From positions 28,245 to 92,244 of the forward strand of contig JBHPFI010000002.1 of the NCBI GenBank assembly GCA_042572045.1: 64,000 nt of DNA, read 5' to 3'. Below are positions 2,591 to 58,392 of this stretch, piece after piece. The notes under the pieces are model-generated. The model ran no database searches, was not told the DNA's origin, and was given only the letters and a program-made list of their open reading frames with translations. Position numbers and translations under genes: made by a program. The number at the start of each line of letters is the position of its first letter. The first letter of the stretch is position 1. The stretch comes from Candidatus Omnitrophota bacterium (GTDB lineage: Bacteria; Omnitrophota; Gorgyraeia; Gorgyraeales; Gorgyraeaceae).

Positions 2591-2644
2591 GATGACAATG
2601 CTTGAATTGAAAAATCTTTAATGACGAAACCTTCAAGTTTAGGG
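2591..2644. repeat. Degenerate copy of the palindromic intergenic element family
   Basis: ..TGACAATGCTTGAA...GAAACCTTCAAGTTTAGGG. The right terminus and the GAAACCTT core resemble the 43-nt form. 9 nt downstream of the tal stop. Confidence 0.35.
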
Positions 2645-2652
2645 CCATTCTC

Positions 2653-3756
2653 TTATTTGCTGCAGAGCTCCCCTGCCTTTTTGTTTATTGAAGAAAGGAG
2701 CGCGTCAAATGATTTTTCAAACGCTACTAGTCCGTCGTGAAGCAACCTTTCACATACAATATCTACATCAATCTCGAGATCCTTTAATTGCTTAAGAACG
2801 TCCTCTTTGTCACTCGCATCAGCGCCCAACGCCTCTTCTATAACGCCATGGTCTAAAAAGGCCTGAAATGTATTCTCCGGCAAGGTATTTACAGTGTTTT
2901 TACCTATAAGCTCTGTTACGTATTTAATATCGCTGTATGCCGGGTTTTTTGTGCTGGTAGAGGCCCATAGAACCCTTTGCGCGTTAGCGCCTTTTTCTCT
3001 AAATACCCTAAATTCGTCCCCTGAAAAAATCTCCAGATATTTTTGAAATATGACCTTTGAATTGGCCACAGCAGCCTTGCCTTTTAAAGATATTGGCAGG
3101 TTCTTTTCCTCAATCATATTGTCTATGGCTGTATCGGCGCGGCTCACAAAGACACTGGCTACAGAGCGGGTCTTACTCAAATCCTTTCCTGTTCCCAAAA
3201 GCCTCCCTATGCCCTTGAGAAATGCGTGGGCAGTCTTTACATATTGTCCCGCTGAAAATATCAATGTGGCATTAACATTTATACCCTGGGCAAGAAGTTC
3301 TTCTATGGCAATAAATCCGGCATCTGTGGCGGGAATCTTAAACATGACATTAGGCCTGTTTACCTTTTTAAATAGCCTCTCTGCCTCTTTTAGGGTTTCG
3401 TCAGTCTTGAATGCCAGCTTAGGGCTAACCTCCAAGCTCACATAACCATCCAGTCTGCCTGTCCTATCATAGACCGCTTTAAAAATATCTGCTGCGTCCT
3501 GGACGTCCTTAACCGTCAGATCATCATATATCTCAAATATAGATTTACCTAAGCCGGCCAATTCTTGTATCTTTTCATTGTAATCATTGCTTGACCTGAT
3601 AGCCTTGTCAAATATAGTAGGGTTGGATGTCATGCCCCTCAATCCCACCCTTATCATCTCTTCAAGCCCTCCACCTTCGAGCATAGAGCGGCTGATATTG
3701 TCCAGCCAAATGCTCTGGCCAAACTCATTCAATTTTTCGACCGTTGTTTTCGTCAT
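2653..3756 (-). CDS. tal: Transaldolase
   Basis: 367 aa. N-terminal GQSIWLDNISR motif, FKIPAT active-site Lys region, and length typical of long-form transaldolases. Confidence 0.9.
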   Translation of the reverse strand: MTKTTVEKLNEFGQSIWLDNISRSMLEGGGLEEMIRVGLRGMTSNPTIFDKAIRSSNDYNEKIQELAGLGKSIFEIYDDLTVKDVQDAADIFKAVYDRTGRLDGYVSLEVSPKLAFKTDETLKEAERLFKKVNRPNVMFKIPATDAGFIAIEELLAQGINVNATLIFSAGQYVKTAHAFLKGIGRLLGTGKDLSKTRSVASVFVSRADTAIDNMIEEKNLPISLKGKAAVANSKVIFQKYLEIFSGDEFRVFREKGANAQRVLWASTSTKNPAYSDIKYVTELIGKNTVNTLPENTFQAFLDHGVIEEALGADASDKEDVLKQLKDLEIDVDIVCERLLHDGLVAFEKSFDALLSSINKKAGELCSK

Positions 3757-3774
3757 TGCGCATCCTCCTTAATT

Positions 3775-4800
3775 TTAAAATTTACCATCTATACGTGTTC
3801 CGCATTTCTGACATTTTGCGTCTTTTATATTATAGGCTGCTATGTCGAACATCTGCCTCCTGATTAAAAGGGTTTTGCAGTTATAGCAATACGTATCTCC
3901 CCCGCCAAAGACATTGCCCATGTATATATACCGAAGGCCTGCTGAGGAACCTATCTCCTTAGCCCTGTTCAAGGTATCGATCGGGGTAGCTATTGAATCA
4001 AGATATCTATAGTCAGGATGAAACCTGGATATATGCCACGGGATCTCAGGCCCTATATCTACAATAAACCCTGCGATGGCAATAAAATCTTCATCTGAAT
4101 CATTTTGCCCTGGTACAACCAGGGTCGTAACCTCAACCCATATACCCATTTTCTTCATTATCCTTATCGAATCAAGCACAGGCGCAAGATGGCCCTGGCA
4201 CATCTTTTTATAAAAATCCTCCTTGAATGATTTAAGGTCAACGTTGCAGGCATCGAGGTAAGGTCTTATTGTCTCCAGGGCCTCGGGCGTCATGTATCCA
4301 TTGGTCACAAAATTATTATAAATCCCCTGGCCTTTTGCAAGTTTTGCAGTTTCATAGGCATATTCAAAAAATATAGTGGGCTCTGTGTATGTATATGATA
4401 TGCTCTTACATTTATTTTTCCGGGCCTCTTTTACAACCTCTTCAGGTTGTGCTTCATAGCCGGAAAACCCTTCCTCCCTCATGGAAAGCTGCGATATCTG
4501 CCAATTCTGACAAAAGGAGCACTTAAAATTGCATCCTGGACTCGCTATCGAATAGGACGTGGAGCCAGGAAGAAAATGATAAAGAGGTTTTTTCTCTATT
4601 GGATCGACGTGAGACGCGATAACTTCCGCATATACATGTGTGTAGAGCTTGCCGTCTTTATTTTCTCTGAGCCCGCAGATACCGAATCCACCCGGCAATA
4701 TTTTACAGTGATGCGAGCATAGATAGCAATGCACCTTCTTCTTATCCAACTTTTCATAAAGCATTGCTTCTTTTATCATATCTTGTTTAAGGAGGGGCAA
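3775..4800 (-). CDS. AmmeMemoRadiSam-type radical SAM enzyme (PFL-activase-like)
   Basis: CNFKCSFCQNW radical-SAM CxxxCxxC motif plus an N-terminal Cys-rich CYLCSHHC...GICG motif. The N-terminus overlaps nth by 25 nt, so Met8 (4779) or Met13 (4764) may be the true start. Confidence 0.75.
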   Translation of the reverse strand: MPLLKQDMIKEAMLYEKLDKKKVHCYLCSHHCKILPGGFGICGLRENKDGKLYTHVYAEVIASHVDPIEKKPLYHFLPGSTSYSIASPGCNFKCSFCQNWQISQLSMREEGFSGYEAQPEEVVKEARKNKCKSISYTYTEPTIFFEYAYETAKLAKGQGIYNNFVTNGYMTPEALETIRPYLDACNVDLKSFKEDFYKKMCQGHLAPVLDSIRIMKKMGIWVEVTTLVVPGQNDSDEDFIAIAGFIVDIGPEIPWHISRFHPDYRYLDSIATPIDTLNRAKEIGSSAGLRYIYMGNVFGGGDTYCYNCKTLLIRRQMFDIAAYNIKDAKCQKCGTRIDGKF

Positions 4801-5414
4801 AGTTTAGCTATTGGGCATCTGCCGCATAAAGGCTTTCTGGCATTACAAATCTTCCTGCCGTGATCAACAAGCATATAATTAAAATCAACCCAGTCTTTTT
4901 TAGCGACCATCTTCATAAGGTCTCTCTCTATTTTATTAGGATTATTTTGTCTAGTTAGGCCCAATCTAATTGAAAGCCTTTTTACATGGGTATCAACGGC
5001 TATGCCTTCTGCTTTTTTAAAACCGCTCGACAATACTATGTTGGCTGTCTTGCGCGCTACGCCAGGCAGGGAAACCAGTTCTTCCATGGCGTTAGGCACC
5101 TTCCCGTTAAAGCCTTCTATCATTTTTTTTGAAGTGGCTATGATATTTTTTGACTTATTTCTGTAGAAGCCTGTGGAGCGGATCTCTTGCTCTAAAACGG
5201 ATTGTTTTGCCCTGGCAAAATCATGCATAGTTTTATATTTCTTGAAAAGCGACGGGGTGATCTTGTTTACTCTCTCATCAGTACACTGCGCCGAGAGTAT
5301 CGTGGCTATCAAAATCTGAAAGGGGGTCTTGTAATAGAGCGTTGTGCGGCTCTTATGATATTGCTTGCGTAATATCTTTATTATCTCTGTTACTCTTTCT
5401 TTGGCAGGTTTCAC
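4776..5414 (-). CDS. nth: Endonuclease III (DNA glycosylase/AP lyase)
   Basis: 212 aa. HhH-GPD region (LPGVARKTANIV) and C-terminal 4Fe-4S loop CX6CX2CX5C (CNARKPLCGRCPIAKLC). Confidence 0.9.
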   Translation of the reverse strand: MKPAKERVTEIIKILRKQYHKSRTTLYYKTPFQILIATILSAQCTDERVNKITPSLFKKYKTMHDFARAKQSVLEQEIRSTGFYRNKSKNIIATSKKMIEGFNGKVPNAMEELVSLPGVARKTANIVLSSGFKKAEGIAVDTHVKRLSIRLGLTRQNNPNKIERDLMKMVAKKDWVDFNYMLVDHGRKICNARKPLCGRCPIAKLCPSLNKI

Positions 5415-5430
5415 TATATATCCCGATGTA

Positions 5431-6380: not shown

Positions 6381-7037
6381 CTACCTCTCTCTTTCTCCGA
6401 AAATCTTGGTGCCTACCCTTACAATATTCGCGCCTTCGGCAATCGCTACCTTGTATGAATTGCTCATACCCATTGAAAGATACCTCATTTCAACATTTGA
6501 AACATCCAGAGCTTTTAGTTTATCAAATATGCTTTTTGTTTCTACGAAATACGGTCGCGCGTCCTCAGGGTCCCCAAGCATAGGGCCCATGGTCATAATG
6601 CCCATTACCTTTACATTGTCTAATCTTGATAATCTCCTTATAAATGTCTCTACGTCCTCTGGCAACACGCCAAATTTTTGTTCTTCCTTGGCACTGTTTA
6701 TTTCAACCAATACAGGCATGGCCTTATTTTCCCTGACACACATCTTGTCTACTTCCTCAGCCAATTCCAAAGAATCAAGCGTCTCTATCATATCAAAGAG
6801 CCTTATTGCCTTCTTGACCTTGTTCTTCTGTAAATGCCCTATAAAATGCCATTTTGCTTTATTGCCTATTACGCCAAACGCCAGCTCTGCCTCCTGGACA
6901 TAATTTTCTCCTATAATCTTTACGCCGGCATCTATAGCCTCTAAGACCTCCTGAGGGGTCCTGGACTTGGCAACGGCTTCAAGCTCTACGCCTCCAGGTA
7001 ACTCACAAAGTATCTTACTGACATTTTCCTTAATCAT
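6381..7037 (-). CDS. yggS: YggS-family pyridoxal phosphate homeostasis protein
   Basis: 218 aa. Alanine-racemase-N-fold pattern with AVAKSRT (PLP Lys), HFIGHLQKNK and SMGMS motifs. Confidence 0.85.
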   Translation of the reverse strand: MIKENVSKILCELPGGVELEAVAKSRTPQEVLEAIDAGVKIIGENYVQEAELAFGVIGNKAKWHFIGHLQKNKVKKAIRLFDMIETLDSLELAEEVDKMCVRENKAMPVLVEINSAKEEQKFGVLPEDVETFIRRLSRLDNVKVMGIMTMGPMLGDPEDARPYFVETKSIFDKLKALDVSNVEMRYLSMGMSNSYKVAIAEGANIVRVGTKIFGERER

Positions 7038-7809
7038 AACTGCCTCTGCGCCTCAAGGTATCCTCTTTACTGATAGGTCTGGCCCCCTTCCTTCCAGAGC
7101 CATAAACAGAAATAACGTTCATACCATCAAAATATCTGATTACTACGTCCAATTCTTCTTTGGATAAGGGCCTTGCCTCGCACGGCCTCAAAGGAGTATT
7201 GATTTGAACTTCGTCTGGCTGAATCTCTCTGGCTATCGCTGCTAAATCTTCCGCATAAACCTTATTCTGCTCTATAAACATAATCTGTAGCGCCAGCTTC
7301 CCGTTATAAGCGCCCCTGAACTCCTTTATGCCTTTCAGGACCCTATCAAAAGTTATGCCACGCATAGGTTTATTTATATCAAGAAACGCTTTTGCTGAAG
7401 AGGCATCGAGTTTGGCTATTACCAAATCGCTAAGCGCTAAATCCTTTTGCACATCATCTCTGTTAATCAAAGATGAATTTGTTATGACTGCGACCTTTTC
7501 CTTTCTTATTTTCCTTATCTCTTTGATCATCTCGCCTAAATTTTTAGCAAGAGTTGGTTCTCCTTTTCCAGAAAAAGTAATATAATCTATTTTTAAGGGA
7601 GGTAGCGATTTTATCTCTTCTATAATCTTCTCCGTGGAAACAAATATCTCTCTCTGGTCGGTATATATATCAGTCTCTCCGACCTGGCAGTAAACGCAGC
7701 CGAATGAACAAATTTTTTCTTCTCTTGAGAGAGGGTCTATTCCGAGAGAACTGCCAAGCCTCCAGGAAGGCACTGGGCCATATATATATTTGTATTTTTG
7801 TGTAGGCAT
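7030..7809 (-). CDS. Radical SAM protein, function unknown
   Basis: 259 aa. CSFGCVYCQ CxxxCxxC motif near the N-terminus. 8-nt overlap with yggS. Confidence 0.7.
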   Translation of the reverse strand: MPTQKYKYIYGPVPSWRLGSSLGIDPLSREEKICSFGCVYCQVGETDIYTDQREIFVSTEKIIEEIKSLPPLKIDYITFSGKGEPTLAKNLGEMIKEIRKIRKEKVAVITNSSLINRDDVQKDLALSDLVIAKLDASSAKAFLDINKPMRGITFDRVLKGIKEFRGAYNGKLALQIMFIEQNKVYAEDLAAIAREIQPDEVQINTPLRPCEARPLSKEELDVVIRYFDGMNVISVYGSGRKGARPISKEDTLRRRGSYD

Positions 7810-8505: not shown

Positions 8506-9483
8506 TTAGATTATCTTGTCTTTTTCATCGTAAATCTCGCCAAAGAGCTCTTCTAAGACATCCTCCATGGAGATAATACCTATGTTTTTACCCCCTTTAT
8601 CTCTTACGATAAAAAGATGCTGATGGTATGCCTGAAATTTATTCAAAAGGTCATCTGCCTTTTCGTTCTCATTTACAAATATAGGTCTTAGCATAAAATC
8701 TCTTACTTTCGCCTCATAGCTATCCTTTGCGATCTCCCTCAGCAGCACCCTCTGCTGGCATATCCCGATTATACTTGATATATCCTTATCATAAACTGCG
8801 ATCCTGCTATACTGCGAATTGAGTATCGAATCCTTCATGTCTATCAATTTCTGATCGCCGTCCAATGCATAGATATGGTCTATGGGTTTCATCATATGAA
8901 AGGCCTTTACATCGTTGAGCTTAAACACCTTGTTGCAGAGATTTTCCTCATCCACCTCAACCGTGCCAGCTGCCCTGCCGAGCTTCAGCATAATCTTTAT
9001 CTCTTCTTCGGTAACCTTAGGACCGGGCGTCTTTTTCTTCAAACTCCTACCTATAAAAATCAAAACCTGCACAAATGGCTTTAAGGCCCACATCACAATC
9101 CTGAGGACCTTAGAGCTTGCAAGAGAAACTGAAACCTTATATTGTTCTCCTATTGTCTTGGGAATCACTTCGGATACTACTATGATTAAAAAAGTGATAA
9201 AGGCCGAGGAAATCCCCAGCCATTCGTTTCCAAAAAGCCTCAAGACCTTCTGGCCTACAAATATAGATCCGACTATATTTATCGAGTTATTCAGCACTAC
9301 AATTGCCGCAATGGCAGTATGGATATCTTCCTTTACAAGAAGGAGGTCTTTTGAGCCTTTACGTTTCTGGTCACATAAAATCCTGGCCTTCACCAATGGG
9401 AGGCTCAGGATAGCAGCCTCTACCATCGAACATAAGCCTGAGGATAAAAGCACTCCTATAAGCAAAATAATCAAATTTACCAT
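8506..9483 (-). CDS. CNNM/HlyC-CorC family transporter (DUF21 plus CBS pair)
   Basis: 325 aa. Four N-terminal TM helices followed by a tandem CBS-like region. Confidence 0.75.
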   Translation of the reverse strand: MVNLIILLIGVLLSSGLCSMVEAAILSLPLVKARILCDQKRKGSKDLLLVKEDIHTAIAAIVVLNNSINIVGSIFVGQKVLRLFGNEWLGISSAFITFLIIVVSEVIPKTIGEQYKVSVSLASSKVLRIVMWALKPFVQVLIFIGRSLKKKTPGPKVTEEEIKIMLKLGRAAGTVEVDEENLCNKVFKLNDVKAFHMMKPIDHIYALDGDQKLIDMKDSILNSQYSRIAVYDKDISSIIGICQQRVLLREIAKDSYEAKVRDFMLRPIFVNENEKADDLLNKFQAYHQHLFIVRDKGGKNIGIISMEDVLEELFGEIYDEKDKII

Positions 9484-10075: not shown

Positions 10076-10101
10076 ATATTCCCAGGGATTACCATCAGAA
10101 G

Positions 10102-10139
10102 CTGACTTGACAAATCAGTCAATTACATGTGTCAAGTTA
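10102..10139. repeat. Palindromic intergenic element (CCTRACTTGA...TCAAGTYAGG family)
   Basis: CTGACTTGACAaatcagtcaattacatgTGTCAAGTTA. Its first 19 nt are identical to the copy at 25544-25562, and its terminal TTA is the speB stop codon. Confidence 0.8.
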
Positions 10140-10994
10140 TTTGGCGAAAATGTAGCCAAGCATTTTGTAAATGAGCCTGGCCGCTGTAAAGTCCGGGGTC
10201 ACTATATCCTTTATAGGACAAAGTTCAACCACATCAAATCCCACCACAGTCTTGTCAGTTATAATATTACGTATGGCCTTTAAAAATTCATACCAGAGCA
10301 TACCTCCAGGCTCAGGCGCGCCTACAGAAGGCATGATTGATGGGTCAAATACATCAAGATCCACGCTTATGTAAATGTTATCTGAAAGACTATCTCTTAC
10401 AGTATTAAACCAATCAGGCGAGCTCAACATGTCTAACATGCTTATAATCTTAATATTTTTACCAGGGAGAATTTCTTTTTCTTCCTTGCTTAAACTTCTC
10501 ACCCCCGCTTCGACTACGTCCGCCATCTCTATAAGGCGCCTGGCAACGCATGCGTGATTATATTTAGAGCCCGCGTAGCTATCTCTCAGATCTCCATGGG
10601 CATCAAAATATAAAATAGATAAATTTTTATGCTGTTTCTTTGCGGCCCCTATTGCTCCAATCGTAATCGAATGCTCTCCTCCTAACATAACAGGGAATTT
10701 ATTCTGCGCAAAAACATCCGAAACCTTTTTCTCTACAACGCTGATCATTTCCTCTGACTTAAGCCCTTCCACCTCAAGGGAAGCCGCGGTATTAATACCT
10801 ATAACGTGTATCTCTTTATTCAACTCCTCGTCAAAAAGCTCCATCTTATCTGATGCGTTCAATATTGCATTAGGGCCGTTTTCAGTCCCTTTTCTATAGG
10901 TCGCGGTCTTTCCGTAGGGGACCGGCAAAACTACTACCTTTGCCTTTTTAAAAGAGGTAAATTTATTATCTGTACCGCCGAAACAAACTGCCAT
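10137..10994 (-). CDS. speB: Agmatinase (arginase-fold ureohydrolase)
   Basis: 285 aa. Mn-ligand motifs GGEHSIT, DAHGDLR and SVDLDVFDP. Its stop codon lies inside a repeat element. Confidence 0.85.
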   Translation of the reverse strand: MAVCFGGTDNKFTSFKKAKVVVLPVPYGKTATYRKGTENGPNAILNASDKMELFDEELNKEIHVIGINTAASLEVEGLKSEEMISVVEKKVSDVFAQNKFPVMLGGEHSITIGAIGAAKKQHKNLSILYFDAHGDLRDSYAGSKYNHACVARRLIEMADVVEAGVRSLSKEEKEILPGKNIKIISMLDMLSSPDWFNTVRDSLSDNIYISVDLDVFDPSIMPSVGAPEPGGMLWYEFLKAIRNIITDKTVVGFDVVELCPIKDIVTPDFTAARLIYKMLGYIFAK

Positions 10995-10997
10995 AAT

Positions 10998-11963
10998 CTA
11001 TCCTTCTAAAACATATTGAAATACAAGCGGGGCCACTATGCTCGCATCTGACTCGATTATAAACCTTGGCGTGTCAATGCCTAACTTTTCCCAGGTGATC
11101 TTTTCGTTAGGCACAGCGCCGCTATAAGAACCGTAGGATGTCGTGCAATCGCTAATCTGACAAAAATACCCCCAAAGCTTACATGCTTTTCCTAAGTCCT
11201 GCCTTATCAATGGTACGACGCATATTGGAAAATCGCCTGCGATACCTCCGCCTATCTGGAAAAATCCCATAGATCCATCTTTTGTGTTTTCCAGATACCA
11301 ATCAATAAGATAATTCATCTGCTCCAACCCGCTCTTTATAAAATTCAAACTCTTAAAACGCCCCAGCTGTAATTCAGCAACTACCCCGTTGGCCAGGGTC
11401 GAATCTTCCCACCCAGGAGTAAAAATAGGTATGTTCTTTTCGCATGCAGCAACAACCCAGCTATAGATTGGGTCTATCTCATAAAATTCTTTCAATTCAC
11501 CGCTGCGTATAAGCTGATAAAAATATTCGTAAGGGAAAAAACTTTTTCCTTCTCGGTCTGCCTTGTCCCATAAAGGATAGAGCTTTTGTCCCAATCTTCT
11601 TATAGCCTCTTTTTCGGGGATACATGTATCTGTCACGCGGTTAAGATGGTCGTCCTTAAGCCCTAATTCATCTTCGGGAGAAAGATTTCTATAATGGGGG
11701 ATCCTTTTATAGTGGCTATGGGCGATTAAATTAAACATGTCCTCTTCCAGGTTCGCTCCCGTGCAACACATGCCGCGAATCTTGTCTTTTCGTATCATCT
11801 CGGCAAGAGAAATGCCTATCTCAGCTGTGCTCAATGCGCCGGCCATGGTAAGAAACATCTTGTTGCCTTTTTTAAGATGCTCTACCCATGCTTCTCCCGC
11901 ATCTACTATAGCCGCGGCATTAAAATGCTTGAAATTCTTCTTTATAAAATCCCTTACGCTCAT
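10998..11963 (-). CDS. Deoxyhypusine synthase-like protein (possible homospermidine synthase type)
   Basis: 321 aa. TGANLEED and GGGIAGDF motifs, and a C-terminal SYSGAVPNEKITWEK region matching the DHS pattern (DGS.SGA..EA.SWGK). Directly upstream of speB. Confidence 0.75.
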   Translation of the reverse strand: MSVRDFIKKNFKHFNAAAIVDAGEAWVEHLKKGNKMFLTMAGALSTAEIGISLAEMIRKDKIRGMCCTGANLEEDMFNLIAHSHYKRIPHYRNLSPEDELGLKDDHLNRVTDTCIPEKEAIRRLGQKLYPLWDKADREGKSFFPYEYFYQLIRSGELKEFYEIDPIYSWVVAACEKNIPIFTPGWEDSTLANGVVAELQLGRFKSLNFIKSGLEQMNYLIDWYLENTKDGSMGFFQIGGGIAGDFPICVVPLIRQDLGKACKLWGYFCQISDCTTSYGSYSGAVPNEKITWEKLGIDTPRFIIESDASIVAPLVFQYVLEG

Positions 11964-12037: not shown

Positions 12038-13777
12038 CTAGAAGTCTATTGTTCGAGATTTAGTCTTGAACAAATATACTGTCCCCACGTCATATAATGG
12101 GCCGTTATATAATTCTATTATATCCTTACCTGAGGACCTTATAAAATCCCGCATGGCCCTGCCATCAGGGTGGCTATCCAGCTTGCCCACAAAAAATACA
12201 AATCTATCATCTACGCCTGATGAGCCTCCTATAAATCCTGTTTTATACCCAGGGAGTTTTACATGGCCGGGCTCTACAAGAAGCGCCTCGCCTTCGTTTC
12301 TTTCCCACGTGTCTTTAATCTTTCTGTCTGAAGTGATTATACGTTTTTTATCAACAGGTACAATAGAGCACTTTGTATAGCCCTGTGTAACAGCAATATA
12401 TTTACACTTAAATTGCTTAAGGCCCTTTTCCATCCTGCCTTTATAGTGAATTATATATCCGTCTATATTACATGCGTTATAGATTATATCCTCTGGGTAA
12501 ACTGCCGAGACGATTCCCTCCCCTTTTAAACACTTATATCCATTCTGCGCCAAAAGGGCTGCTATGCCCTCTAAACTCGGCTCATAGATGATTCGGTTCT
12601 TGTATTTAAAAAGCATCATATCAACATGGCCTTTTACAGGCCCCTGGAGCTTATCATGCAGAGGCGCCTCCGCAACATAATAATTCAACCTTTTCAAACG
12701 ATCCTTTGCCTCTAAAGGCATTCTGGGATCCACAAGCGCTATGTCCCTTCTTACATCTTTTATTTTTATTCTCTTCTCAACCCTGTGGCAGGGATCGCCT
12801 AAACGCTTCTCATTACCTTTATATAAAATACGTACGCTAAAACACTTTTCTAAAAATTCTTTTTCTGCCGCCTTATGACCCGATATAAAACTAAACATGT
12901 CTTTCGGGGCCTGAATTTCTATATGCGAACGATTCGGAACATATTTATCCTTAACGATATCCCTTATCTTGTTGCGCATTTGACGGCTGCGAACCATTTC
13001 TCCAAATGCCGGGTGGTACGGCCCTCCAAGCACGGCCTTTGCTGAATCAAGGGCCTTGGAGGGATGAAGACCTATGCGTATGACTTTGACGCCGCTATTT
13101 TCAAAGATATCACTGATCTCTGCGGCCCACTCTATTGCCTCATCCAAAGAAAGAGGCCTGTATTTTCCCGACCGAAGATAATGCTCAAGCTCAGTCCCTC
13201 TTAAAACAAGCGCTGGATAGATCCTGGCTGTTTCTGGCTTCAGCTCGATAAGCGTCTTTACGGTTTGTATGGATTTTTTAATTGTGTCGCCTGGCAAACC
13301 AAGCATTATCTGAACGCCCAGCTCTAGGCCTGCTTTTCTAATACACCTGCTTGCTCTCCTAACCGCCTTGAGACTTGTCTCTCTTTTTATCTTCTTTAAA
13401 ACTGCCCTATCAAGGGATTGCACGCCCAGTTCAACGCTACAGCCTCCCTTTCTCTTGAATCTTTTCATTGATTTATCAGACACTGCTTCCGGATGCGTGG
13501 ACATACGTATACCATGAATAATCCCTTTTTTTACGTAAGAAAAAGCAGCCTCGAGATATTTCTCCTGCAACCTATCAGGTAAAAATGTAAACGTGCCCCC
13601 AAAGAAAGCAACTTCTTTTCTTTCATCCTCGGCCATGGTTCTTAGATTGCGCCTGATAACCGAATGCATTTCTTTGAGCGTTGGCGCGCTGACAGAACCT
13701 GAGATCCTGTGCTGATCGCAATATACACACCTATAAGGGCATCCTGCGTGGGGAATAAATATAGGAATGACTTTCAT
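12038..13777 (-). CDS. ELP3-like radical SAM domain fused to an uncharacterised C-terminal domain of about 235 aa
   Basis: 579 aa. N-terminus IFIPHAGCPYRCVYCDQ (CxxxCxxC). The C-terminal half (from about aa 345) has GHVDMM, TSDRKI and GFIGGSSG motifs of no fold I can assign. Confidence 0.65.
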   Translation of the reverse strand: MKVIPIFIPHAGCPYRCVYCDQHRISGSVSAPTLKEMHSVIRRNLRTMAEDERKEVAFFGGTFTFLPDRLQEKYLEAAFSYVKKGIIHGIRMSTHPEAVSDKSMKRFKRKGGCSVELGVQSLDRAVLKKIKRETSLKAVRRASRCIRKAGLELGVQIMLGLPGDTIKKSIQTVKTLIELKPETARIYPALVLRGTELEHYLRSGKYRPLSLDEAIEWAAEISDIFENSGVKVIRIGLHPSKALDSAKAVLGGPYHPAFGEMVRSRQMRNKIRDIVKDKYVPNRSHIEIQAPKDMFSFISGHKAAEKEFLEKCFSVRILYKGNEKRLGDPCHRVEKRIKIKDVRRDIALVDPRMPLEAKDRLKRLNYYVAEAPLHDKLQGPVKGHVDMMLFKYKNRIIYEPSLEGIAALLAQNGYKCLKGEGIVSAVYPEDIIYNACNIDGYIIHYKGRMEKGLKQFKCKYIAVTQGYTKCSIVPVDKKRIITSDRKIKDTWERNEGEALLVEPGHVKLPGYKTGFIGGSSGVDDRFVFFVGKLDSHPDGRAMRDFIRSSGKDIIELYNGPLYDVGTVYLFKTKSRTIDF

Positions 13778-16734: not shown

Positions 16735-18063
16735 ATGAAGAAAAAAATACTGCTGACAATTCTTCCTGTATATTGGCCAAAGATGCCGCCCATCGGCATA
16801 GGGTATCTCCAATCCTTCCTTCTTAATAAAGGCATAAAGGCGGATGTACTGGATCTCAATAATATTTTCTACAATCTATCGCCGCAGGATCTAAAAAAAT
16901 CGTGGCTTCGAAGCTGCAATGTGTTTCTAGAAAAAAATATCCTTTCTATACTCCGAAATCACATTTCCGAAGAATATAATTCCGCTATAGAGAAAATACT
17001 AAAATATGACATGGTAGGTTTTTCCTGTTTTAAGAGCAATTTAAAAACTACTCTTAAGGTAGTAAAAATACTTAAATCCAGGAAAAACAATATCCAGATA
17101 ATATTGGGCGGGCCTGAGATTACAAGGCAATATTTCAAAACATCCGGAGCGTTTACCGATGAGATAAAAGCCTTTTCGAATCTTATCGTGGCGGGCGAAG
17201 GAGAATTGCCTCTCTTTAACTACATCGCGGAAAAAGATAAAAATCATAAAATAGCAAGCTTCTGCGAACTCGAAAATCTAGAAGAACTTCCCTTTCCGGA
17301 ATACAGAGATATTGACTTGAAAGACTATTCCAGAACAGATTCTATCCCAATACTGTTTTCAAGGGGTTGTTCTAAAAAATGCGCTTTCTGTTCTGAAAGA
17401 CTTCTCTATAAAAGATCTCGCATGCGACCGGTAGAAAACGTAATCGAGGAAATAGCGTATCACAGGGCCAGGAATAAAATAGAATATTTCATATTTCACG
17501 ACTCGATGATAAATTTTAATATCCAGAAGTTAGAAAATCTATGCGATAAGATAATTGAAAACTTTGGTTCCATACGATGGGAGGCCCAGTTATATATACG
17601 CGACGACATGCGGCAAGGTCTCTTGGAAAAAATAAAAAAAAGCGGCTGTTACAACCTCTTCATAGGCCTCGAATCTGGTTGCGACAGAACGCTCCAGAAT
17701 ATGAACAAAGGTTTTACTACCCAAAACGCCATTTTGCTTTTTAAAAAACTGCGCGATGCAGGGCTCCCATTTGGCGTGAGCCTTATCGCAGGTTATCCGG
17801 GCGAAGGAGATAAGGATTTTCAGGAAGGCCTGGATTTTTTAATCCAAAATAAAAAACTTATACCAAAGATAGAGCAGGTAAACCCTTTTACATATTATGA
17901 CGGCACGGATGCTGATAAAAATTTTGACTATGCCATGAATAGCATATCTCTTAAACGCTTAAAGATTTTTATAAATGAGATTAAAAAACACGGCTTTAAG
18001 TACACAAATGCCTTTTTGGGCAACCTCATCGAAAAAAACGATCCGCTGCCAAGCCTGACCTGA
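16735..18063 (+). CDS. B12-binding-domain radical SAM protein
   Basis: N-terminal B12-binding-like Rossmann region, then FSRGCSKKCAFCSE (CxxxCxxC). The track start is a TTG at 16732 and the ATG is at 16735. The stop lies inside a repeat element. Confidence 0.8.
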   Translation: MKKKILLTILPVYWPKMPPIGIGYLQSFLLNKGIKADVLDLNNIFYNLSPQDLKKSWLRSCNVFLEKNILSILRNHISEEYNSAIEKILKYDMVGFSCFKSNLKTTLKVVKILKSRKNNIQIILGGPEITRQYFKTSGAFTDEIKAFSNLIVAGEGELPLFNYIAEKDKNHKIASFCELENLEELPFPEYRDIDLKDYSRTDSIPILFSRGCSKKCAFCSERLLYKRSRMRPVENVIEEIAYHRARNKIEYFIFHDSMINFNIQKLENLCDKIIENFGSIRWEAQLYIRDDMRQGLLEKIKKSGCYNLFIGLESGCDRTLQNMNKGFTTQNAILLFKKLRDAGLPFGVSLIAGYPGEGDKDFQEGLDFLIQNKKLIPKIEQVNPFTYYDGTDADKNFDYAMNSISLKRLKIFINEIKKHGFKYTNAFLGNLIEKNDPLPSLT

Positions 18064-18081
18064 CAAATGTGTCAAGTCAGG
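18054..18081. repeat. Palindromic intergenic element, minimal 28-nt form
   Basis: CCTGACCTGACAaatgTGTCAAGTCAGG. Contains the stop of the B12-rSAM gene, and shares a 17-mer with 30962-30978. Confidence 0.8.
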
Positions 18082-18097: not shown

Positions 18098-18955
18098 ATG
18101 ACAGGTCTAAAAACAGTAAAAATCTCGCGCATATTAAATCCCACGTCCATTGACCTGGGCGAGTACGTGATAAACCCGTATATGGGCTGCGAATTTTCAT
18201 GCCTCTACTGTTACGTGAGGTCCAACAAGGTTATAAGCAGGAAACGAGAACCGTGGGGCACATATGTGGACATAAGAATCAATGCCCCTAAATTGCTGGA
18301 AAAAGAAATACTCTTGAAAAAACCATCCTCTGTGCTTTTAGGTTCTACCACAGAGTGCTTTCAGGACGCGGAGAAAAGATATAAAATTACAAAAAAAATC
18401 CTGGAGATATTGAATAGATATAATGTATATTATACTATACTGACGCGCTCCACCTATATAGGAGAGTATATAGACTTACTCGCAAAAGGATTCTGTAAAA
18501 AAATTTATTTCACTATAAACAACTTAGGGCCTTCTATCAAAGCTCAATTAGAGGCAAAAAGTCCGTCTTACGGAGAAAGGTGCGATACAATCAACAGGTT
18601 GATTGAGCGCGGGATAGACGCGGTGCCTTATCTTTCTCCTATCCTGCCATGGGTATCGGATACAAGAGGCATTTTTTCAAAATTTCCAAAAGCCTCATCT
18701 ATTGAATTTGAAGGCTTGAACTTCAGGGTTGGGAATATCGAAAAAATCATAGGTGCTGTATCCTCAGTATATCCCGATCTCAGAACCGGCTACGAAAGAC
18801 TCTCAAAGGACAAGACGTATTATGATGCCTTCTGGAATAGCGTAAAAAAAGATATAATAAAAGAAGCCATAAAGGCAAAAAAGAACTATAATATTTACAT
18901 ACACAGCTTTGGATCATATTTTGCCAATAGATATTCGCATATAAGTTCTAAGTAG
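18098..18955 (+). CDS. Radical SAM protein, SPL / DNA-photolyase-like (COG1533-type)
   Basis: 285 aa. N-terminal YMGCEFSCLYCYV motif characteristic of the SPL-like rSAM group. Confidence 0.7.
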   Translation: MTGLKTVKISRILNPTSIDLGEYVINPYMGCEFSCLYCYVRSNKVISRKREPWGTYVDIRINAPKLLEKEILLKKPSSVLLGSTTECFQDAEKRYKITKKILEILNRYNVYYTILTRSTYIGEYIDLLAKGFCKKIYFTINNLGPSIKAQLEAKSPSYGERCDTINRLIERGIDAVPYLSPILPWVSDTRGIFSKFPKASSIEFEGLNFRVGNIEKIIGAVSSVYPDLRTGYERLSKDKTYYDAFWNSVKKDIIKEAIKAKKNYNIYIHSFGSYFANRYSHISSK

Positions 18956-18956
18956 A

Positions 18957-18990
18957 CCCTGGGGGCTTTGACTGAATTGTCAAGTCAGGG
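18957..18990. repeat. Palindromic intergenic element, diverged left arm
   Basis: CCCTGggggcTTTGACtgaatTGTCAAGTCAGGG. 2 nt after the stop of the rSAM gene. Confidence 0.65.
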
Positions 18991-24684: not shown

Positions 24685-25395
24685 TTAATCTATTTTCCGT
24701 TTCTGCAAAATCAATTTTTTATTTACAGTATCGATCTGAAAATTAAATTTATTTAAAAAAGACATGCCTAATAATCCATCGTGGGCATCTGTCTCAGAAT
24801 CCCCCGGCAGGATTACTGCTCCGACATCATTGGCCTCTACCCCTCCTACGCTTACACTATCCAAGACAACGTATCTTGCATTTATCTTGCGGCCGTCAGC
24901 CATCTGCGCTTCTATTATCTCATTGCCATCTAGTCCCAATTCGCTTGCTATGCGGCTTGATAACAAAACAGCCGTAGAGCCTGTATCTAAAAGAAGCGAC
25001 GCCCTCACTTTCTTATTCAGCAGGGTATTGACTACTATATGCTCGCTTGCCTGGGAAAATCCCACTTCCCTTGGCTCAAGCTCTCTTCTTTTCCTGGCCT
25101 CCTCTAGCTCCTTTTCCCTCTTCGATCTCCTTTGTTTCTCCAGCCTCCTTTCCTTCTGCCACTCTTTATGCATGATGGTAACTTCGCTACGACTTGACCT
25201 ATATATACTCTTTATCTCGCTCATCCTGAATTTAACCGTACCAAATCCAACGTTTAACTCAAGGTCTTCTTCATCTTCCTTCTCTATCAAACCCTCTATC
25301 CTGCGGCCATTCTTAAGGTATACTGTATCTGCATTTACCTCTGAAATAAAGCCTATCAGAAAAAAGAAAATAAGTGCAGCTATCCAGACTCTCAT
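24685..25395 (-). CDS. Secreted retropepsin-like (clan AA) aspartic protease with a charged linker
   Basis: Start at Met7, with GGAG 8 nt upstream. Signal peptide, a YLKNGRRIEG beta-rich module, a Lys/Arg/Glu-rich linker, and C-terminal LLLDTGST (DTG) and LLGMSFL motifs. Confidence 0.7.
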   Translation of the reverse strand: MRVWIAALIFFFLIGFISEVNADTVYLKNGRRIEGLIEKEDEEDLELNVGFGTVKFRMSEIKSIYRSSRSEVTIMHKEWQKERRLEKQRRSKREKELEEARKRRELEPREVGFSQASEHIVVNTLLNKKVRASLLLDTGSTAVLLSSRIASELGLDGNEIIEAQMADGRKINARYVVLDSVSVGGVEANDVGAVILPGDSETDAHDGLLGMSFLNKFNFQIDTVNKKLILQKRKID

Positions 25396-25544
25396 GATGC
25401 AATCTCCGATCAATCTCTGCCGGTCTCCAGGGCATTGCTACCCATAAATAGAATATCACAAATAGCTGAATAAATGAAAAAGTTTTTTGTAAATCTTGCC
25501 TTTAGTTTTATGTCATGATAACATAATATAATTAACGAATCTAG

Positions 25545-25617
25545 CTGACTTGACAAATCAGTTAGTAGACCAGGTTTAAACCTGGTCTACGGCTGCGACT
25601 AAAAGTGTCAAGTTAGG
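25545..25617. repeat. Palindromic intergenic element with a nested 26-nt perfect palindrome
   Basis: CTGACTTGACA ... TGTCAAGTTAGG termini. The interior holds GTAGACCAGGTTTAAACCTGGTCTAC (25565-25590). Confidence 0.8.
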
Positions 25618-28444: not shown

Positions 28445-28471
28445 TGACTCATTTCCATGTGTCAAGTTAGG
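28445..28471. repeat. Palindromic intergenic element, degenerate left arm
   Basis: TGACTcatttccatgTGTCAAGTTAGG. 31 nt after the nitroreductase stop. Confidence 0.6.
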
Positions 28472-28500
28472 AGAAAACAGAATGAACATAGGATTACGCC

Positions 28501-30940: not shown

Positions 30941-30980
30941 CCTGACTTGAGAAACCTTAAGTGACAAATGTGTCAAGTTA
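30941..30980 (-). repeat. 43-nt-type palindromic element, inverted orientation
   Basis: CCTGACTTGAGAAACCTTAAGTGACAAAtgTGTCAAGTTA. A 24-nt core is identical to the reverse complement of 34365-34388. It lies between convergent genes and supplies the stop of the 30978 gene. Confidence 0.85.
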
Positions 30981-34360: not shown

Positions 34361-34403
34361 CCTGACTTGAGCGTTTTGTCACTTAAGGTTTCTCAAGTTA
34401 GGG
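34361..34403 (+). repeat. 43-nt-type palindromic element
   Basis: CCTGACTTGAGCGTTTTGTCACTTAAGGTTTCTCAAGTTAGGG. Lies between the divergent arsC and helicase genes. 33/42 identical to 58351-58392. Confidence 0.85.
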
Positions 34404-38955: not shown

Positions 38956-38984
38956 ATTATACATCCTAAACTAAAAAATCCCAA
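38956..38984 (-). promoter_or_regulatory. Promoter of the 38262-38900 membrane protein gene
   Basis: Minus strand TTGGGA, a 17-nt spacer, then TATAAT. The -35 region is part of a 17-mer identical to one at the 47299-47327 promoter. Confidence 0.55.
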
Positions 38985-39064
38985 GCAAAATATTTAACTC
39001 TTAGGGGACGGAGCCCTATTTTTTAGAAATAAGGCGATATCCCCTAAAAAAAATTCACTTTTTC

Positions 39065-41804: not shown

Positions 41805-41816
41805 CCTAACTTGACA
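41805..41816. repeat. Isolated left half-site of the element family
   Basis: CCTAACTTGACA 13 nt after the ODC stop, with no matching right arm nearby. Confidence 0.4.
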
Positions 41817-41827
41817 CAAAAAAATGA

Positions 41828-47298: not shown

Positions 47299-47327
47299 AT
47301 TATACCCTTAGGGACAATAAATCCCAA
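47299..47327 (-). promoter_or_regulatory. Promoter of the Cache-HK / response-regulator operon
   Basis: Minus strand TTGGGA, a 17-nt spacer, then TATAAT, about 30 nt upstream of the ATG at 47267. The -35 lies in one arm of the hairpin at 47319-47347. Confidence 0.55.
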
Positions 47328-47463
47328 GCAAAATATGCTTGGGATTTATCCTGATATCCAAAAACAATCCCTGTTCTCGACTTTTACAATCATAACAGGA
47401 CATTATAAAGAAATTTACCATGCTTTCTATGCGCTGTCAAGACCACGACGCATAAAAACATTG

Positions 47464-47553
47464 CTAACTTGATACGTGAGATTGCGCCACCCGCCAGAGG
47501 CGGATTATTCGCCTGCGGCGAATAACTTTTGTCATTGAGAATTCCTCAAGTTA
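47464..47553 (+). repeat. 43-nt-type element carrying an insertion of about 50 nt with two GC-rich hairpins
   Basis: CTAACTTGAtacg [insert] TTTTGTCATTGAGAATTCCTCAAGTTA. The insert holds the hairpins CCGCC-AGA-GGCGG and TTATTCGCC-TGC-GGCGAATAA. Confidence 0.75.
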
Positions 47554-47589
47554 AAAGACCCTCTGCAATCTAGTCAATTACAGAGGGTC
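47553..47589 (-). terminator. Intrinsic terminator-like hairpin after the repeat-protein gene
   Basis: Minus strand GACCCTCTG, a 15-nt loop, CAGAGGGTC, then CTTTTAA. 48 nt downstream of the stop at 47637. Confidence 0.5.
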
Positions 47590-47636: not shown

Positions 47637-48566
47637 TTACCTTCGTGGACTACGCCCACCGCCTCGTTTGCCTCCACCTTGTTTGCCGCCACCTCGAGGG
47701 CCTCCTTTAGGGCCTGGAGAATTGCCCTTCCCGAATCCCTGTCCAGCGCCTGGTCCACCTTTTGGCCCTGGAGGGTTTATTGGCGGCTTGCGGTCTGGAA
47801 GCGGGCCTCGATCCCTTATATCTTCACCCCTATCCCTGATATCTTCTCTGCGGTCACGAACATCTTCTCTGTGATCGCGCATATCTTCTTTGCGGTCAAG
47901 CATATCTTCCTTTTTATCCCAAACATCTTCCCTCTTATCCTTTTCGATGTTCCTCTGTAATACTCTTATTTGCTTTCTAATCCTTGCCTGTTCTGCAGAA
48001 TCTGTAGCGCTTGATAGTTGTTCCTTTAAATTATTAAGCCTTTCAGATTTTTTTCTATCATCTCTTGCGTCTCTAATATCTTCTTTTCGATCCCATGCAT
48101 CCTCCCTGCGATCCCGTACATCTTCCTTTCGGTCCCATGTATCTTCCCTGCGGTCTTTGATATCTTCTTTTCTATCATAGAAATCTTCTCTGCGATCAGC
48201 TCCTGCAGGAGATGGGCGTAAGTCTACACCTGGGCCGCCTTCTGGTCTTGGCGATTTATCTTTCCAAGGCCCACGCCTTACGCCTGGACCATCTTTTGGC
48301 CCTAGGGGATTACCCTTTCCGAATCCTTGACCAGCGCCTGGACCTCCTTTTGGTCCTGGCAGATTGCCTTTTCTAAATCCTTTGCCTGTCGTCGGACCGC
48401 CTTTGGGACCCTGCGAGCTGCCTTTTTTGAATCCTTTCCCTGCCTTTGGGCTGAGCTTCGGCCCTGAAGGACTGCCTTTACGTTGAGCGTAAGACATTGT
48501 TGTTAAGAAAAACACCGCGCATATGGATAAACAAACTATTGCCATAGTTCTTTTTTTGATATTCAT
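47637..48566 (-). CDS. Secreted low-complexity repeat protein (GPKGG/GKGF repeats flanking DRxEDxx heptad arrays)
   Basis: 309 aa with a signal peptide ending SYA|Q. Internal repeats are conserved at the protein level with synonymous DNA divergence, e.g. GPKGGPGAGQGFGKGN occurs twice. GGAGGAG lies upstream of the ATG. Confidence 0.7.
   Translation of the reverse strand: MNIKKRTMAIVCLSICAVFFLTTMSYAQRKGSPSGPKLSPKAGKGFKKGSSQGPKGGPTTGKGFRKGNLPGPKGGPGAGQGFGKGNPLGPKDGPGVRRGPWKDKSPRPEGGPGVDLRPSPAGADRREDFYDRKEDIKDRREDTWDRKEDVRDRREDAWDRKEDIRDARDDRKKSERLNNLKEQLSSATDSAEQARIRKQIRVLQRNIEKDKREDVWDKKEDMLDRKEDMRDHREDVRDRREDIRDRGEDIRDRGPLPDRKPPINPPGPKGGPGAGQGFGKGNSPGPKGGPRGGGKQGGGKRGGGRSPRR
47805..47939 (-). 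repeat. 21-bp tandem repeat array (heptad DRxEDxx), distal block
   Basis: Encodes DKREDVW DKKEDML DRKEDMR DHREDVR DRREDIR DRGEDIR. The periodic ATCTTC..CGGTC pattern is visible on the plus strand. Confidence 0.85.
48051..48197 (-). repeat. 21-bp tandem repeat array (heptad DRxEDxx), proximal block
   Basis: Encodes DRREDFY DRKEDIK DRREDTW DRKEDVR DRREDAW DRKEDIR DARDDRK. Confidence 0.85.
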
Positions 48567-49426: not shown

Positions 49427-50866
<1,440 letters not shown>

Positions 50867-50870
<4 letters not shown>

Positions 50871-51652
50871 TCTACCCTCTTTAATTTTTCTATTTTCTCT
50901 CTGTCCAGATTATAAATATTATCGAATAGCCTTTCTTTAAATGTGCCGGGCCCGGCGCTATCTTTACAAGCAAACTCTGCTGCGATCTCATAGCATGTAA
51001 GTCCGGCAGTAGCTGCCTTGGCTAAATCCTTTTCAACAGCGCTAAATGTGCCTATCACTGAAGTAGCCATGCACCCGGTCCCTACCACATGGCTCATCAT
51101 GTCGCATCCGTTTTTAACAATAAAATGTTTGTCCTTGTCAGCTATTACATCTTCTTTTCCAGTTATAACTACAGTAGCGTTTCTTTTAGCCGCAAGGTGC
51201 ATTGCCAGTTCTATTAAATCCTTTTCAACTTCGCTGGCATCTACTCCCTTTGTCTGCACATTTTCTCCTGCGATCCTGGCAACCTCTGAGGCATTACCTT
51301 TTATAATATCTATTTTTGCATCTTTGAGTAGCTCAAAGGATTTCTCATTTCTTAATCTTGTAGCGCCTGCGCCGCATACATCCAGGGTAACAGGAATGCC
51401 TTTTTTATTTGCGGATTTTGCGGCTCGCTTCATTGAGTCAACAAAATCAGGGGTCAGCGTACCTATATTAAGGACGAGACTGGACGCCAAGCTCACCATA
51501 TCCTCAACCTCTTCTATCGCATGAGCCATCACAGGCGCAGCCCCAAAGACCTTTACAATATTAGCACAGTCATATATCGTGACCCAGTTTGTGAGATGGT
51601 GCACCAGAGGTTTTTCTGCTCTGACTCTTTCCAAAATGCTATATATATCCAT
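50867..51652 (-). CDS. thiM: Hydroxyethylthiazole kinase
   Basis: 261 aa. PLVHHLTN, LDVCGAGAT and VVGTGCM motifs. Preceded by a TPP riboswitch. Confidence 0.9.
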
Positions 51653-51663: not shown

Positions 51664-51805
51664 TAAATAAAAAACCCTATGCTAAAACATAGGGTTCCAT
51701 CTAATACTGGGTTCTTTTCCCTACGCTGGCATTATCCAGTTCAGGTTCGTCGGGTAATCCGTTCATTCACGGAACTCTCAGGCCGGCCGCGACCTCCCCA
51801 TTGCT
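51664..51805 (-). promoter_or_regulatory. TPP (THI-box) riboswitch with a terminator expression platform
   Basis: The minus strand contains CCTGAGA and ACCTGAACTGGATAATGCCAGCGTAGGGAA, matching the THI-box consensus. It is followed by the hairpin AACCCTATG-TTTTAG-CATAGGGTT plus TTTTATTT just before the thiM RBS. Confidence 0.9.
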
Positions 51806-51811
51806 CGTTAT

Positions 51812-52223: not shown

Positions 52224-52226
52224 ACA

Positions 52227-55373: not shown

Positions 55374-55389
55374 AACCTGCTCCTTTTAA

Positions 55390-57944: not shown

Positions 57945-57945
57945 A

Positions 57946-58230
57946 TTAATGACTCCTCCTGAATCTCTGTATTAAACCAATAATCTCATCTATCTTTTTC
58001 TGTTTTTCAGATTCAGATTTTCCTTTTAGGGCATGAACCACACACCCGTCAATATGCTTTCTGAAGATATTGTTCTCCACTCTATAGAGCGCTCCTACGA
58101 TAGAATGGATTTGTGTGATGATATCCACGCAGTACCTCTTATCCTCGATCATCCTCTGTATTCCCTTAACCTGACCCTCGATTTTCTTTAAAGCTATCGA
58201 TTGTTCGCTGTGGGTAGTCTTTTTGTTCAT
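57946..58230 (-). CDS. csoR: CsoR/RcnR-family metal-sensing repressor
   Basis: 94 aa. LKKIEGQVKGIQRMIE and C..H..C ligand positions (YCVDI...HIDGC). First gene of the efflux operon. Confidence 0.85.
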   Translation of the reverse strand: MNKKTTHSEQSIALKKIEGQVKGIQRMIEDKRYCVDIITQIHSIVGALYRVENNIFRKHIDGCVVHALKGKSESEKQKKIDEIIGLIQRFRRSH

Positions 58231-58254
58231 CGCAATAGGTCTCCTCTCACTACA

Positions 58255-58284
58255 AGTATACCCTACCCCCCTACCCTATGTCAA
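58255..58284 (-). promoter_or_regulatory. csoR-efflux operon promoter with an embedded C/G-tract operator
   Basis: Minus strand TTGACA, the 18-nt spacer TAGGGTAGGGGGGTAGGG, then TATACT. The spacer is TAGGGTA-G6-TAGGGTA, resembling CsoR/RcnR G-tract operators. Confidence 0.7.
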
Positions 58285-58350
58285 GGGCTAAATAAAAACC
58301 CTTCCACCTCTATGACCAGGCAATTTCCAGCAGAAGGGTTAAACTAATAT

Positions 58351-58392
58351 CCTAAGTTGAGCGCTTTGTCATTTGAGACTTTTCAAGTTAAG
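58351..58392 (+). repeat. 43-nt-type palindromic element
   Basis: CCTAAGTTGAGCGCTTTGTCATTTGAGACTTTTCAAGTTAAG. Overlaps the last 8 codons and the stop of the permease gene. Confidence 0.8.

Follow-up and report, generated by a model that had tools for sequence, protein, structure and literature searches.

A lineage-restricted family of miniature palindromic repeats at gene ends and in spacers of an Omnitrophota genome segment

The element described here is a short palindromic repeat present in 11 copies in a 64-kb stretch of DNA (64,000 nucleotides of contig JBHPFI010000002.1, hereafter the window) from a Candidatus Omnitrophota bacterium, a member of a phylum known almost solely from metagenomes. 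The repeat family is real and not previously described. By repeated copying, a unit with inverted ends has come to occupy many gene ends and spacers; which of these positions are filled differs between lineages, and individual copies decay through deletion and nested insertion. The copies donate stop codons to adjoining genes, alter protein C-termini and part gene pairs that overlap as ATGA in relatives. We regard them as probably lineage-restricted, non-coding miniature interspersed palindromes, similar to miniature inverted-repeat transposable elements (MITEs) and repetitive extragenic palindromic sequences (REPs) and spread by an enzyme acting in trans. We infer both the mobility of the element and a mobilising enzyme.

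A repeated palindromic unit in non-coding DNA

The first-pass annotation of the window, made from its letters alone, had proposed a dispersed family of intergenic palindromes that would be enriched over shuffled sequence and rarer within genes than between them, and both expectations were borne out within these 64 kb. With up to one mismatch and on both strands, the arm motif CCTRACTTGA has 17 matches in the window against 6.9 +/- 2.9 in dinucleotide shuffles, none of the 100 shuffles attaining 17. The exact 11-mer core CTRACTTGASA occurs nine times against 0.04 expected, a count that was likewise attained by none of 100 shuffles. A weight-matrix scan of the window recovered the same 17 arms and no comparable site elsewhere. 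All 17 are intergenic or overlap gene 3' ends and last codons, a space that amounts to 3.6 kb or 5.7% of the window, and the same scan placed no good arm inside coding sequence. A covariance model of the full-length form, run over the window, identified no additional intact copies. The copy coordinates listed at first pass were all confirmed (Table 1), including the one listed as degenerate at 2591-2644. By hand alignment, this copy is equal in length to, and 69% identical with, the reverse complement of copy 34361. In addition, a covariance model built without it returned 2599-2645 on the minus strand as its top non-training match (21.8 bits, rough E 0.005), and the copy is therefore a genuine decayed family member.

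Table 1. Copies of the palindromic repeat in the window, and the state of the corresponding junctions in relatives (rSAM, radical SAM; L numbers are our labels for contigs)
Position	Strand	Form and setting	Junction compared	Occupied in	Empty in
2601..2644	-	decayed subtype-1 copy, interior reversed; between transaldolase stop and Fur start			
10101..10141	+	full subtype-2 copy, 41 nt; between agmatinase and Maf	agmatinase 3' end	none	L081 (14-nt spacer, no element)
18054..18081	+	28-nt deletion form; provides TGA stop (18061) of B12-radical-SAM gene	B12-rSAM / rSAM	L083	L001, L082 (both ATGA overlaps)
18957..18990		degenerate copy, 5' arm disrupted, 3' arm perfect; between radical-SAM and DUF362 genes	rSAM / DUF362	L083, L081	L082 (ATGA overlap), L004 (genes overlap)
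25544..25617	+	subtype-2 copy, 74-nt form; between conserved promoter and ribosome-binding site of 246-aa gene	246-aa gene 5' leader	none	L001 (promoter conserved)
28445..28471	+	27-nt subtype-2 copy, 12-nt internal deletion in 5' half, 3' arm perfect; between nitroreductase and GH94 genes	nitroreductase / GH94	L084	L001, L085, L086, L087
30941..30982	-	subtype-1 copy, interior reversed; occupies entire spacer between convergent GH94 and AlaDH-like genes	GH94 3' end	none	L086 (2-nt spacer)
34361..34403	+	best-preserved subtype-1 copy, 43 nt, divergent intergenic region; 47.8 bits (covariance model)			
41805..41818	-	lone arm CCTAACTTGACACA, 12 nt past ornithine/diaminopimelate decarboxylase-family stop; partner arm decayed or absent			
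47463..47555	+	subtype-1 copy, 93-nt form, ~50-nt insertion of GC-rich hairpins			
58351..58392	+	subtype-1 copy across 3' end of ArsP-type permease gene; 42.1 bits (covariance model)			

Comparison of the copies revealed a unit of about 41-43 bp, bounded by terminal inverted repeats of 11-12 bp with the consensus (C)CTRACTTGA(S)A ... T(S)TCAAGTYAG(G), the inverted ends being also written as CCTRACTTGASA. The earlier description of conserved termini around a free interior of 4 to 75 nt is thus better replaced by such a unit together with its deletion and insertion derivatives, since the interior of about 20 nt falls into two subtypes, each common to more than one of the aligned copies. The subtype-1 interior, GCGTTTTGTCACTTAAGGTTTC, is found in copies 34361, 58351 and 47463 and, reversed, in 30941 and 2601. 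To the 43-nt form, for which four copies had been noted, we assign five, among them 2601 and, despite its insertion, 47463. The subtype-2 interior, CAAATCAGTCAATTACATGTG, is found in copies 10101 and 25544, and within both subtypes lies a third motif resembling the arms, TGTCACTTAAGG or CAGTCAATTA. Over a stretch of 38 nt, copy 30941 shows 87% complementarity to 34361, and the two shared strings reported at first pass proved exact: the 19-nt GCTGACTTGACAAATCAGT, common to 10101 and 25544, and TGACAAATGTGTCAAGT, common to 18061 and 30962. Since it is the interiors, and not the arms alone, that are common to several copies, whole units must have been copied.

The deletion and insertion derivatives go back to these full-length forms. 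The short copies 18054 and 28445 are deletion forms, the former lacking the central 13 nt and the latter 12 nt of its left half. The long copies 25544 and 47463 carry nested hairpins, and both inserts are unique in the window; that of 25544 is a perfect 26-nt palindrome, GTAGACCAGGTTTAAACCTGGTCTAC, at 25565-25590, which begins with GTAG and ends with CTAC. The lone arm at 41805 has a position-weight score of 23.0, among the top three. A short (G)GCAT motif follows the 3' arm in seven copies across lineages, and the unit may therefore reach past the palindrome on one side.

In intact copies the terminal stem has a predicted free energy of -10 to -19 kcal/mol. Folding was compared with that of shuffled sequence and was markedly stable for copies 18054 (-15.8 kcal/mol, z -3.6), 34361 (-19.3, z -3.3) and 25544 (-36.7, z -7.0), while copies 58351, 28445 and 30941 fold no better than shuffles. 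Across eight copies, the two arms pair in 85% of cells, as against 12-52% when the partner is slid, and three arm pairs are changed on both sides, the observed covariation measures being attained by 2-5 of 500 shuffles. At the pair formed by arm position 4 (R of CCTRAC and Y of GTYAGG), four to five of the window copies (among 10101, 18054, 25544, 30941 and 34361) carry G.T on the plus strand and none carries A.C. This holds independently of gene strand and interior orientation, and although the interiors of 30941 and 34361 face opposite ways; relatives mostly have A-T there. With at most five independent events, the one-strand G.T bias is suggestive at best.

The copies lie between co-directional genes in eight cases (the earlier count had been two, within a co-directional operon), between convergent genes in one and in divergent regions in two. 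All four of the stop codons that had been placed inside copies are indeed there. In addition to the TGA at 18061, these comprise, on the minus strand, the TAA of agmatinase (10137-10139), within an arm of copy 10101, the TAA of the AlaDH-like gene (30978), within an arm of copy 30941, and the TGA of the permease gene (58369-58371), whose last seven codons are also encoded by copy 58351. An arm gives TGA or TAA in two of three frames from either side, the TGA arising in CCTGACTTGA and the TAA in CCTAAC, read from either side. The closeness of the copies to stop codons is, however, largely explained by the compactness of the genome, the element itself making up most of the spacer. The window contains ordinary housekeeping and redox genes, and those that flank the copies share no function. 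Two of the proteins encoded are identical to the NCBI entries MFC1666458.1 and MFC1666469.1. The nucleotide skew of the window tracks gene strand and hence allows no assignment of the copies to a replication strand.

Several conventional roles for the arms were considered and rejected. A terminator scan called no copy terminator-like on its own stem followed by a T-run, in agreement with the earlier remark that the copies have no U-tract. The nested hairpin at 47505-47525 inside copy 47463 was called terminator-like as well. Otherwise the only scan terminator site overlapping a copy, 34370-34352 on the minus strand, is a side hairpin in which one arm pairs with flanking sequence upstream. At 47557-47589 on the minus strand lies a strong terminator-like hairpin of 14 pairs, separate from the element, whose T-tail runs directly into the arm of copy 47463. 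As their own stems are not followed by a T-run, and the terminator at 47463 is a separate hairpin, we do not consider the copies intrinsic terminators. The arms contain TTGACA, but no usable -10 element stands at proper spacing and a promoter scan showed no excess, which rules against promoters. An operator of a dimeric regulator was likewise rejected, given an arm spacing of anywhere between 4 and about 70 nt and neighbouring genes of unrelated function.

Beside copy 28445 we observed that its 3' arm finishes in AGGAG and that, 7 nt on, an ATG at 28482 starts a 10-codon mini-open reading frame that overlaps the GH94 start at 28501 (28466-28514 in all). This mini-open reading frame could be a leader peptide, a coupling device or a product of chance.

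Occupancy in relatives and searches beyond the window

The related sequences available for comparison comprise 13 contigs, 73.5 kb in total, the closest of which are 70-78% identical to the window in two enzymes. At this distance, with proteins diverged by about 22-27%, at least five junctions that hold a copy in the window lack one in one to four relatives each, and several of the empty junctions are ATGA overlaps. The presence/absence polymorphism that the first-pass annotation had suggested looking for is therefore found. Copy 18054, for example, holds apart two genes that overlap in relatives, and in L001, L085 and L087 the conserved promoter that lies ahead of copy 25544 is followed by no element.

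Relatives also carry copies of their own. In L083, a 41-nt copy precedes the radical-SAM gene and another follows it, with a TAA stop in the arm of the latter. In L081, a copy stands at the 3' end of the radical-SAM gene, again with TAA in its arm, and the contig ends about 30 nt further on; the L084 contig begins inside a copy, ahead of GH94, and L085 has a decayed copy upstream of a conserved promoter. Altogether, three relatives have short-read contigs whose beginning or end falls at a copy or within one, as expected if dense palindromes of about 40 bp break such assemblies, and these breaks therefore suggest that the element is multi-copy in those genomes as well. A variant family in L004, with arms CTAACCTGGCA...TGCCAGGTTAG, differs from that of the window at two arm positions, each changed on both sides. 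It is represented by a full copy (7042-7088) and a truncated one (8777-8806) at junctions that have no copy in the window, contains an inner CTAAC-CAG-GTTAG mini-hairpin, and holds the TAA stop of a DUF362 gene within an arm. One of its junctions is a gene overlap in the window, the reverse of the filled and empty pattern described above. In a tree built from one protein, lineages that have copies are interspersed with those that do not; the tree is near a star and should not be relied on.

Reading the window flanks revealed no common direct repeat around the copies. At 18054, a larger insert is flanked by an 11-nt direct repeat that is imperfect, GAAAAAAACGA / GACAAAAATGA, and neither in silico excision there nor an alignment at 30941 resolved a target-site duplication, the relatives being too diverged to fix boundaries.

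Unrelated and much longer palindromic insertions, with long inverted ends and a length of 150-500 nt, were observed in like spacers of relatives (L001 at 6430-6612, 10717-11213 and 12740-12922; L085 at 1-165 and about 290-520; L086 at 1093-1643). As relatives carry other palindromic insertions at like sites, these genomes are evidently permissive to such elements, and MITE-like elements seem to be abundant in this clade of Omnitrophota in general.

Consistent with the first-pass statement that no known repeat family was recognised, searches of Rfam, a plasmid collection, viral contigs and the literature produced no match. In Rfam, at both the gathering threshold and E<=5, no match fell on a copy, the only ones being a thiamine pyrophosphate (TPP) riboswitch and one chance match elsewhere. 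Plasmids (by BLAST) and viral contigs (by two pattern scans) gave no match, and a literature search for the motif returned primer-like coincidences only, with no paper naming it; nor did the literature search find a description of repeats in Omnitrophota. The subtype-1 pattern had no match in GTDB representative genomes, a set to which the source genome accordingly does not belong. Its sole match in JGI metagenomes lies inside a gene of an unrelated AT-rich contig and was dismissed as chance. The two-arm pattern gave 73 loci in 185,579 representative genomes, none from Omnitrophota. These were rejected as family members, since they consist almost entirely of single hairpins in unrelated taxa, with many plain terminators among them. 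A recurrent group among Clostridia metagenome-assembled genomes (L008, L013, L025 and L043) was also set aside as a conserved terminator hairpin 13-14 nt behind a tRNA gene. As separate observations, the same 10-bp stem recurs in Thermoleophilaceae (L024, L031, L044 and L056), as CCTGACTTGACC...GGTCAAGTCAGG, and in Endomicrobiellum (L028, L036 and L063).

Origin of the copies and alternative explanations

Bacterial MITEs include the Correia/NEMIS elements of Neisseria, RUP of Streptococcus, ERIC and Nezha. Like these, the copies in the window have terminal inverted repeats without coding capacity, insert at gene ends with a gain of stops and changed C-termini, are present or absent at corresponding sites of relatives, and occur as deletion variants and with nested insertions. 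They differ in size, the unit of 28-43 bp being three- to five-fold smaller, and in that no target-site duplication was resolved. With the REPs, bacterial interspersed mosaic elements (BIMEs) and REP-doublet hairpins (REPINs) of Enterobacteria and Pseudomonas they share short imperfect palindromes that are extragenic, locally dense and mostly behind open reading frames, a lineage-specific consensus and expected transcription into mRNA hairpins. Taken as extragenic repeated palindromes of 20-40 bp, REPs are matched in size and placement by the 28-43 bp units and their 11 copies. The REPs surveyed are mostly downstream of open reading frames between co-directional or convergent genes, and most are marked by an unpaired GTAG or CGTC tag (PMC3733652). 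Such a tag is missing here: the flanks of all copies lack a consistent GTAG/CTAC or CGTC/GACG by the stem, and the only flanking GTAG (18953-18956) is the stop-codon context of one copy. Also unlike REPs, arms of 11-12 bp surround an interior of about 20 nt, doublets of the REPIN type are absent, and no gene for a REP-associated tyrosine transposase (RAYT) was found in the 64 kb. The REP- or MITE-like character proposed at first pass thus stands as regards palindromic form, inverted ends, and filled and empty sites. It fails as regards the tag and a tight stem-loop, and the fit to MITEs is incomplete, the unit being below their usual size. Overall, the family behaves like REPs and small MITEs, and nothing yet points outside that framework.

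We favour, as the probable explanation, a MITE-like or REP-like spread. The element would be copied and pasted into tolerated positions, namely last codons, short spacers and 5' leaders, by an enzyme that recognises the inverted ends in trans and whose gene presumably lies in another part of the genome; the process would count as MITE-like, or as REP-like should a single-strand hairpin be the substrate. Placement would then reflect where a compact genome tolerates insertions, and copies would decay where they stand, losing internal sequence (as in the 28-nt and 27-nt forms), acquiring point changes or taking up nested hairpins (as in the 74-nt and 93-nt forms). In intact copies, by analogy with REPs (PMC3733652 and the wider REP literature), the 11-12 bp mRNA stem could slow 3' exonucleases and so protect the upstream message, and, where it lies within a few nucleotides of a stop codon, could impede terminating ribosomes. 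The extreme over-representation of the arms, their strictly intergenic or gene-end placement, and derivatives traceable to full-length forms by deletion and insertion all speak for this explanation. So do the interiors common to different copies, the filled and empty states of orthologous junctions, the contig breaks at copies in relatives, the lack of a match to any described family, and the other palindromic insertions that these genomes tolerate.

A number of observations weigh against it. The 64 kb examined contain no transposase, parent insertion sequence or RAYT. As already noted at first pass, no transposase is present, and a domain search of the 60 window open reading frames found no transposase, integrase, HUH, Y1 or RAYT gene. 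No autonomous insertion sequence with the same ends is present in the window, and the two-arm scans of sequence collections gave unrelated single hairpins only. No target-site duplication was resolved at any copy, and the unit is smaller than the usual MITE. Changes in one arm have their counterpart in the other (an A-T to G-C replacement separates L083 from the window, and L004 has two changed pairs), a pattern that host-level selection for the stem, as opposed to selfish spread, could have produced. Copies at shared junctions have arms much better conserved than their interiors across about 22% protein divergence, and at such junctions independent insertion and inheritance are indistinguishable.

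These matched changes are central to an alternative that we consider possible but distinctly less likely, in which the copies are cis-acting RNA or DNA hairpins whose stem is kept by selection for a cellular function, such as 3'-exonuclease protection, setting of cistron expression ratios, RNase processing or binding of a nucleoid or regulatory protein, with repeat-like spread being secondary. The pairing of the arms well above slid controls, the three both-side changes with covariation rarely attained by shuffles, the A-T to G-C swap between copy 18054 and its L083 counterpart at the orthologous junction, and the two fully compensated pairs of the L004 variant are all in line with such selection, as are the perfect 3' arms by downstream starts where 5' arms have decayed (18957 and 28445) and the prevalence of co-directional settings (8/11). 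However, several copies can no longer form the terminal stem, and three (58351, 28445 and 30941) fold no better than shuffles. The flanking genes have no common function, relatives dispense with the element at the same junctions and have translational coupling in its place, and copies also occur among divergent promoters and may face either way with respect to transcription. The G.T pairs stand on the plus strand even where the mRNA corresponds to the minus strand. Moreover, template switching within quasi-palindromes can yield matched arm changes without selection.

The strand bias of the pairing and the occurrence of the interior in both orientations between like arms would also fit REPs in the strict sense, that is, single-strand DNA hairpins mobilised by a RAYT (an IS200/IS605-like tyrosine HUH transposase) whose gene would lie in another part of the genome, and the placement of short intergenic palindromes mostly downstream of open reading frames, between co-directional or convergent genes, is that of REPs (PMC3733652). 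We nevertheless hold this to be improbable, as both ends of every copy lack an unpaired GTAG or CGTC tag, the stem with its loop of about 20 nt is not a tight stem-loop, the copies are not in inverted doublets, and no Y1 transposase is encoded in the window. A related and still rather unlikely proposal is an untagged REP-like system, in which the arms are kept complementary by selection and the hairpin is recognised on one DNA strand by a dedicated, not yet known enzyme; it fits the matched arm changes, the plus-strand G.T pairs that are never A.C, and the two orientations of the interior.

The last group of explanations treats the arms as independent 12-nt recognition words, often in inverted pairs, or the copies as integron attC-like sites. 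The DNA uptake sequences and uptake signal sequences of Neisseria and Pasteurellaceae are conserved 10-12-mers, often found as an inverted pair downstream of genes with a variable spacer, and some of them alone. The copies resemble them in their conserved 10-12-mer, its inverted pairing behind genes and its lone arms (41805, and effectively also 18980 and 28462). They differ in a spacer sequence that is common to copies, so that whole units have been copied, in the absence of arms from coding sequence, and in having no link to competence. Integron attC sites, for their part, are imperfect palindromes of variable length (about 57-141 nt) at the 3' ends of open reading frames, with R''/L'' and L'/R' boxes, an unpaired spacer and extrahelical bases, and they stand in a cassette array near intI. 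Our copies likewise lie at such 3' ends, and the outer 6-7 nt of the A/T variant, CCTAAC...GTTAGG, fit the R''/R' consensus (RYYYAAC/GTTRRRY). The G/C variant CCTGAC/GTCAGG breaks this consensus, however, and the copies, at 28-43 nt, fall below the known attC range and form a single uninterrupted stem with neither a second (L) box nor bulged bases. The genes between them are syntenic housekeeping genes on both strands that are present in element-free relatives, not an array of cassettes, and the window encodes no integrase. Both the recognition-word and the attC readings are therefore disfavoured and appear very improbable.

As it stands, the family is one more lineage-specific REP/MITE-like family, of unusually small anatomy. 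Its consequences for the host genome are nevertheless tangible: copies shift gene ends and stop codons and thereby affect annotation, and they have repeatedly converted overlapping, translationally coupled gene pairs into separated pairs with a hairpin between them. If a mobilising enzyme were found, a very small substrate would be added to those known for hairpin-dependent or terminal-inverted-repeat-dependent transposition. Should the untagged REP-like system be the true one, it would have its own mobilising or processing protein, in a phylum without any described system of the kind, and its insertions would amount to a lineage-specific uncoupling of translationally coupled genes.

Further features of the window

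Next to copy 25544, on the minus strand at 24685-25413, lies an open reading frame with a retropepsin-like aspartyl protease domain (PF13650/PF13975), in place of which L001 has a DUF763 gene. The TPP riboswitch at 51700-51810 on the minus strand scores exactly at the Rfam gathering score (54.3 bits) and is located upstream of thiM/thiE/thi4-type genes (49427-51652). A 309-aa open reading frame without a Pfam match (47637-48566, minus strand) consists almost entirely of 21-nt and 54-nt tandem periodicities and would encode a highly repetitive protein. Finally, an exact 17-nt repeat, AATCCCAAGCAAAATAT, occurs in two intergenic regions (38977-38993 and 47320-47336), at the second of which it forms part of a perfect 14-bp hairpin (47317-47349), and may represent a second small repeat family.

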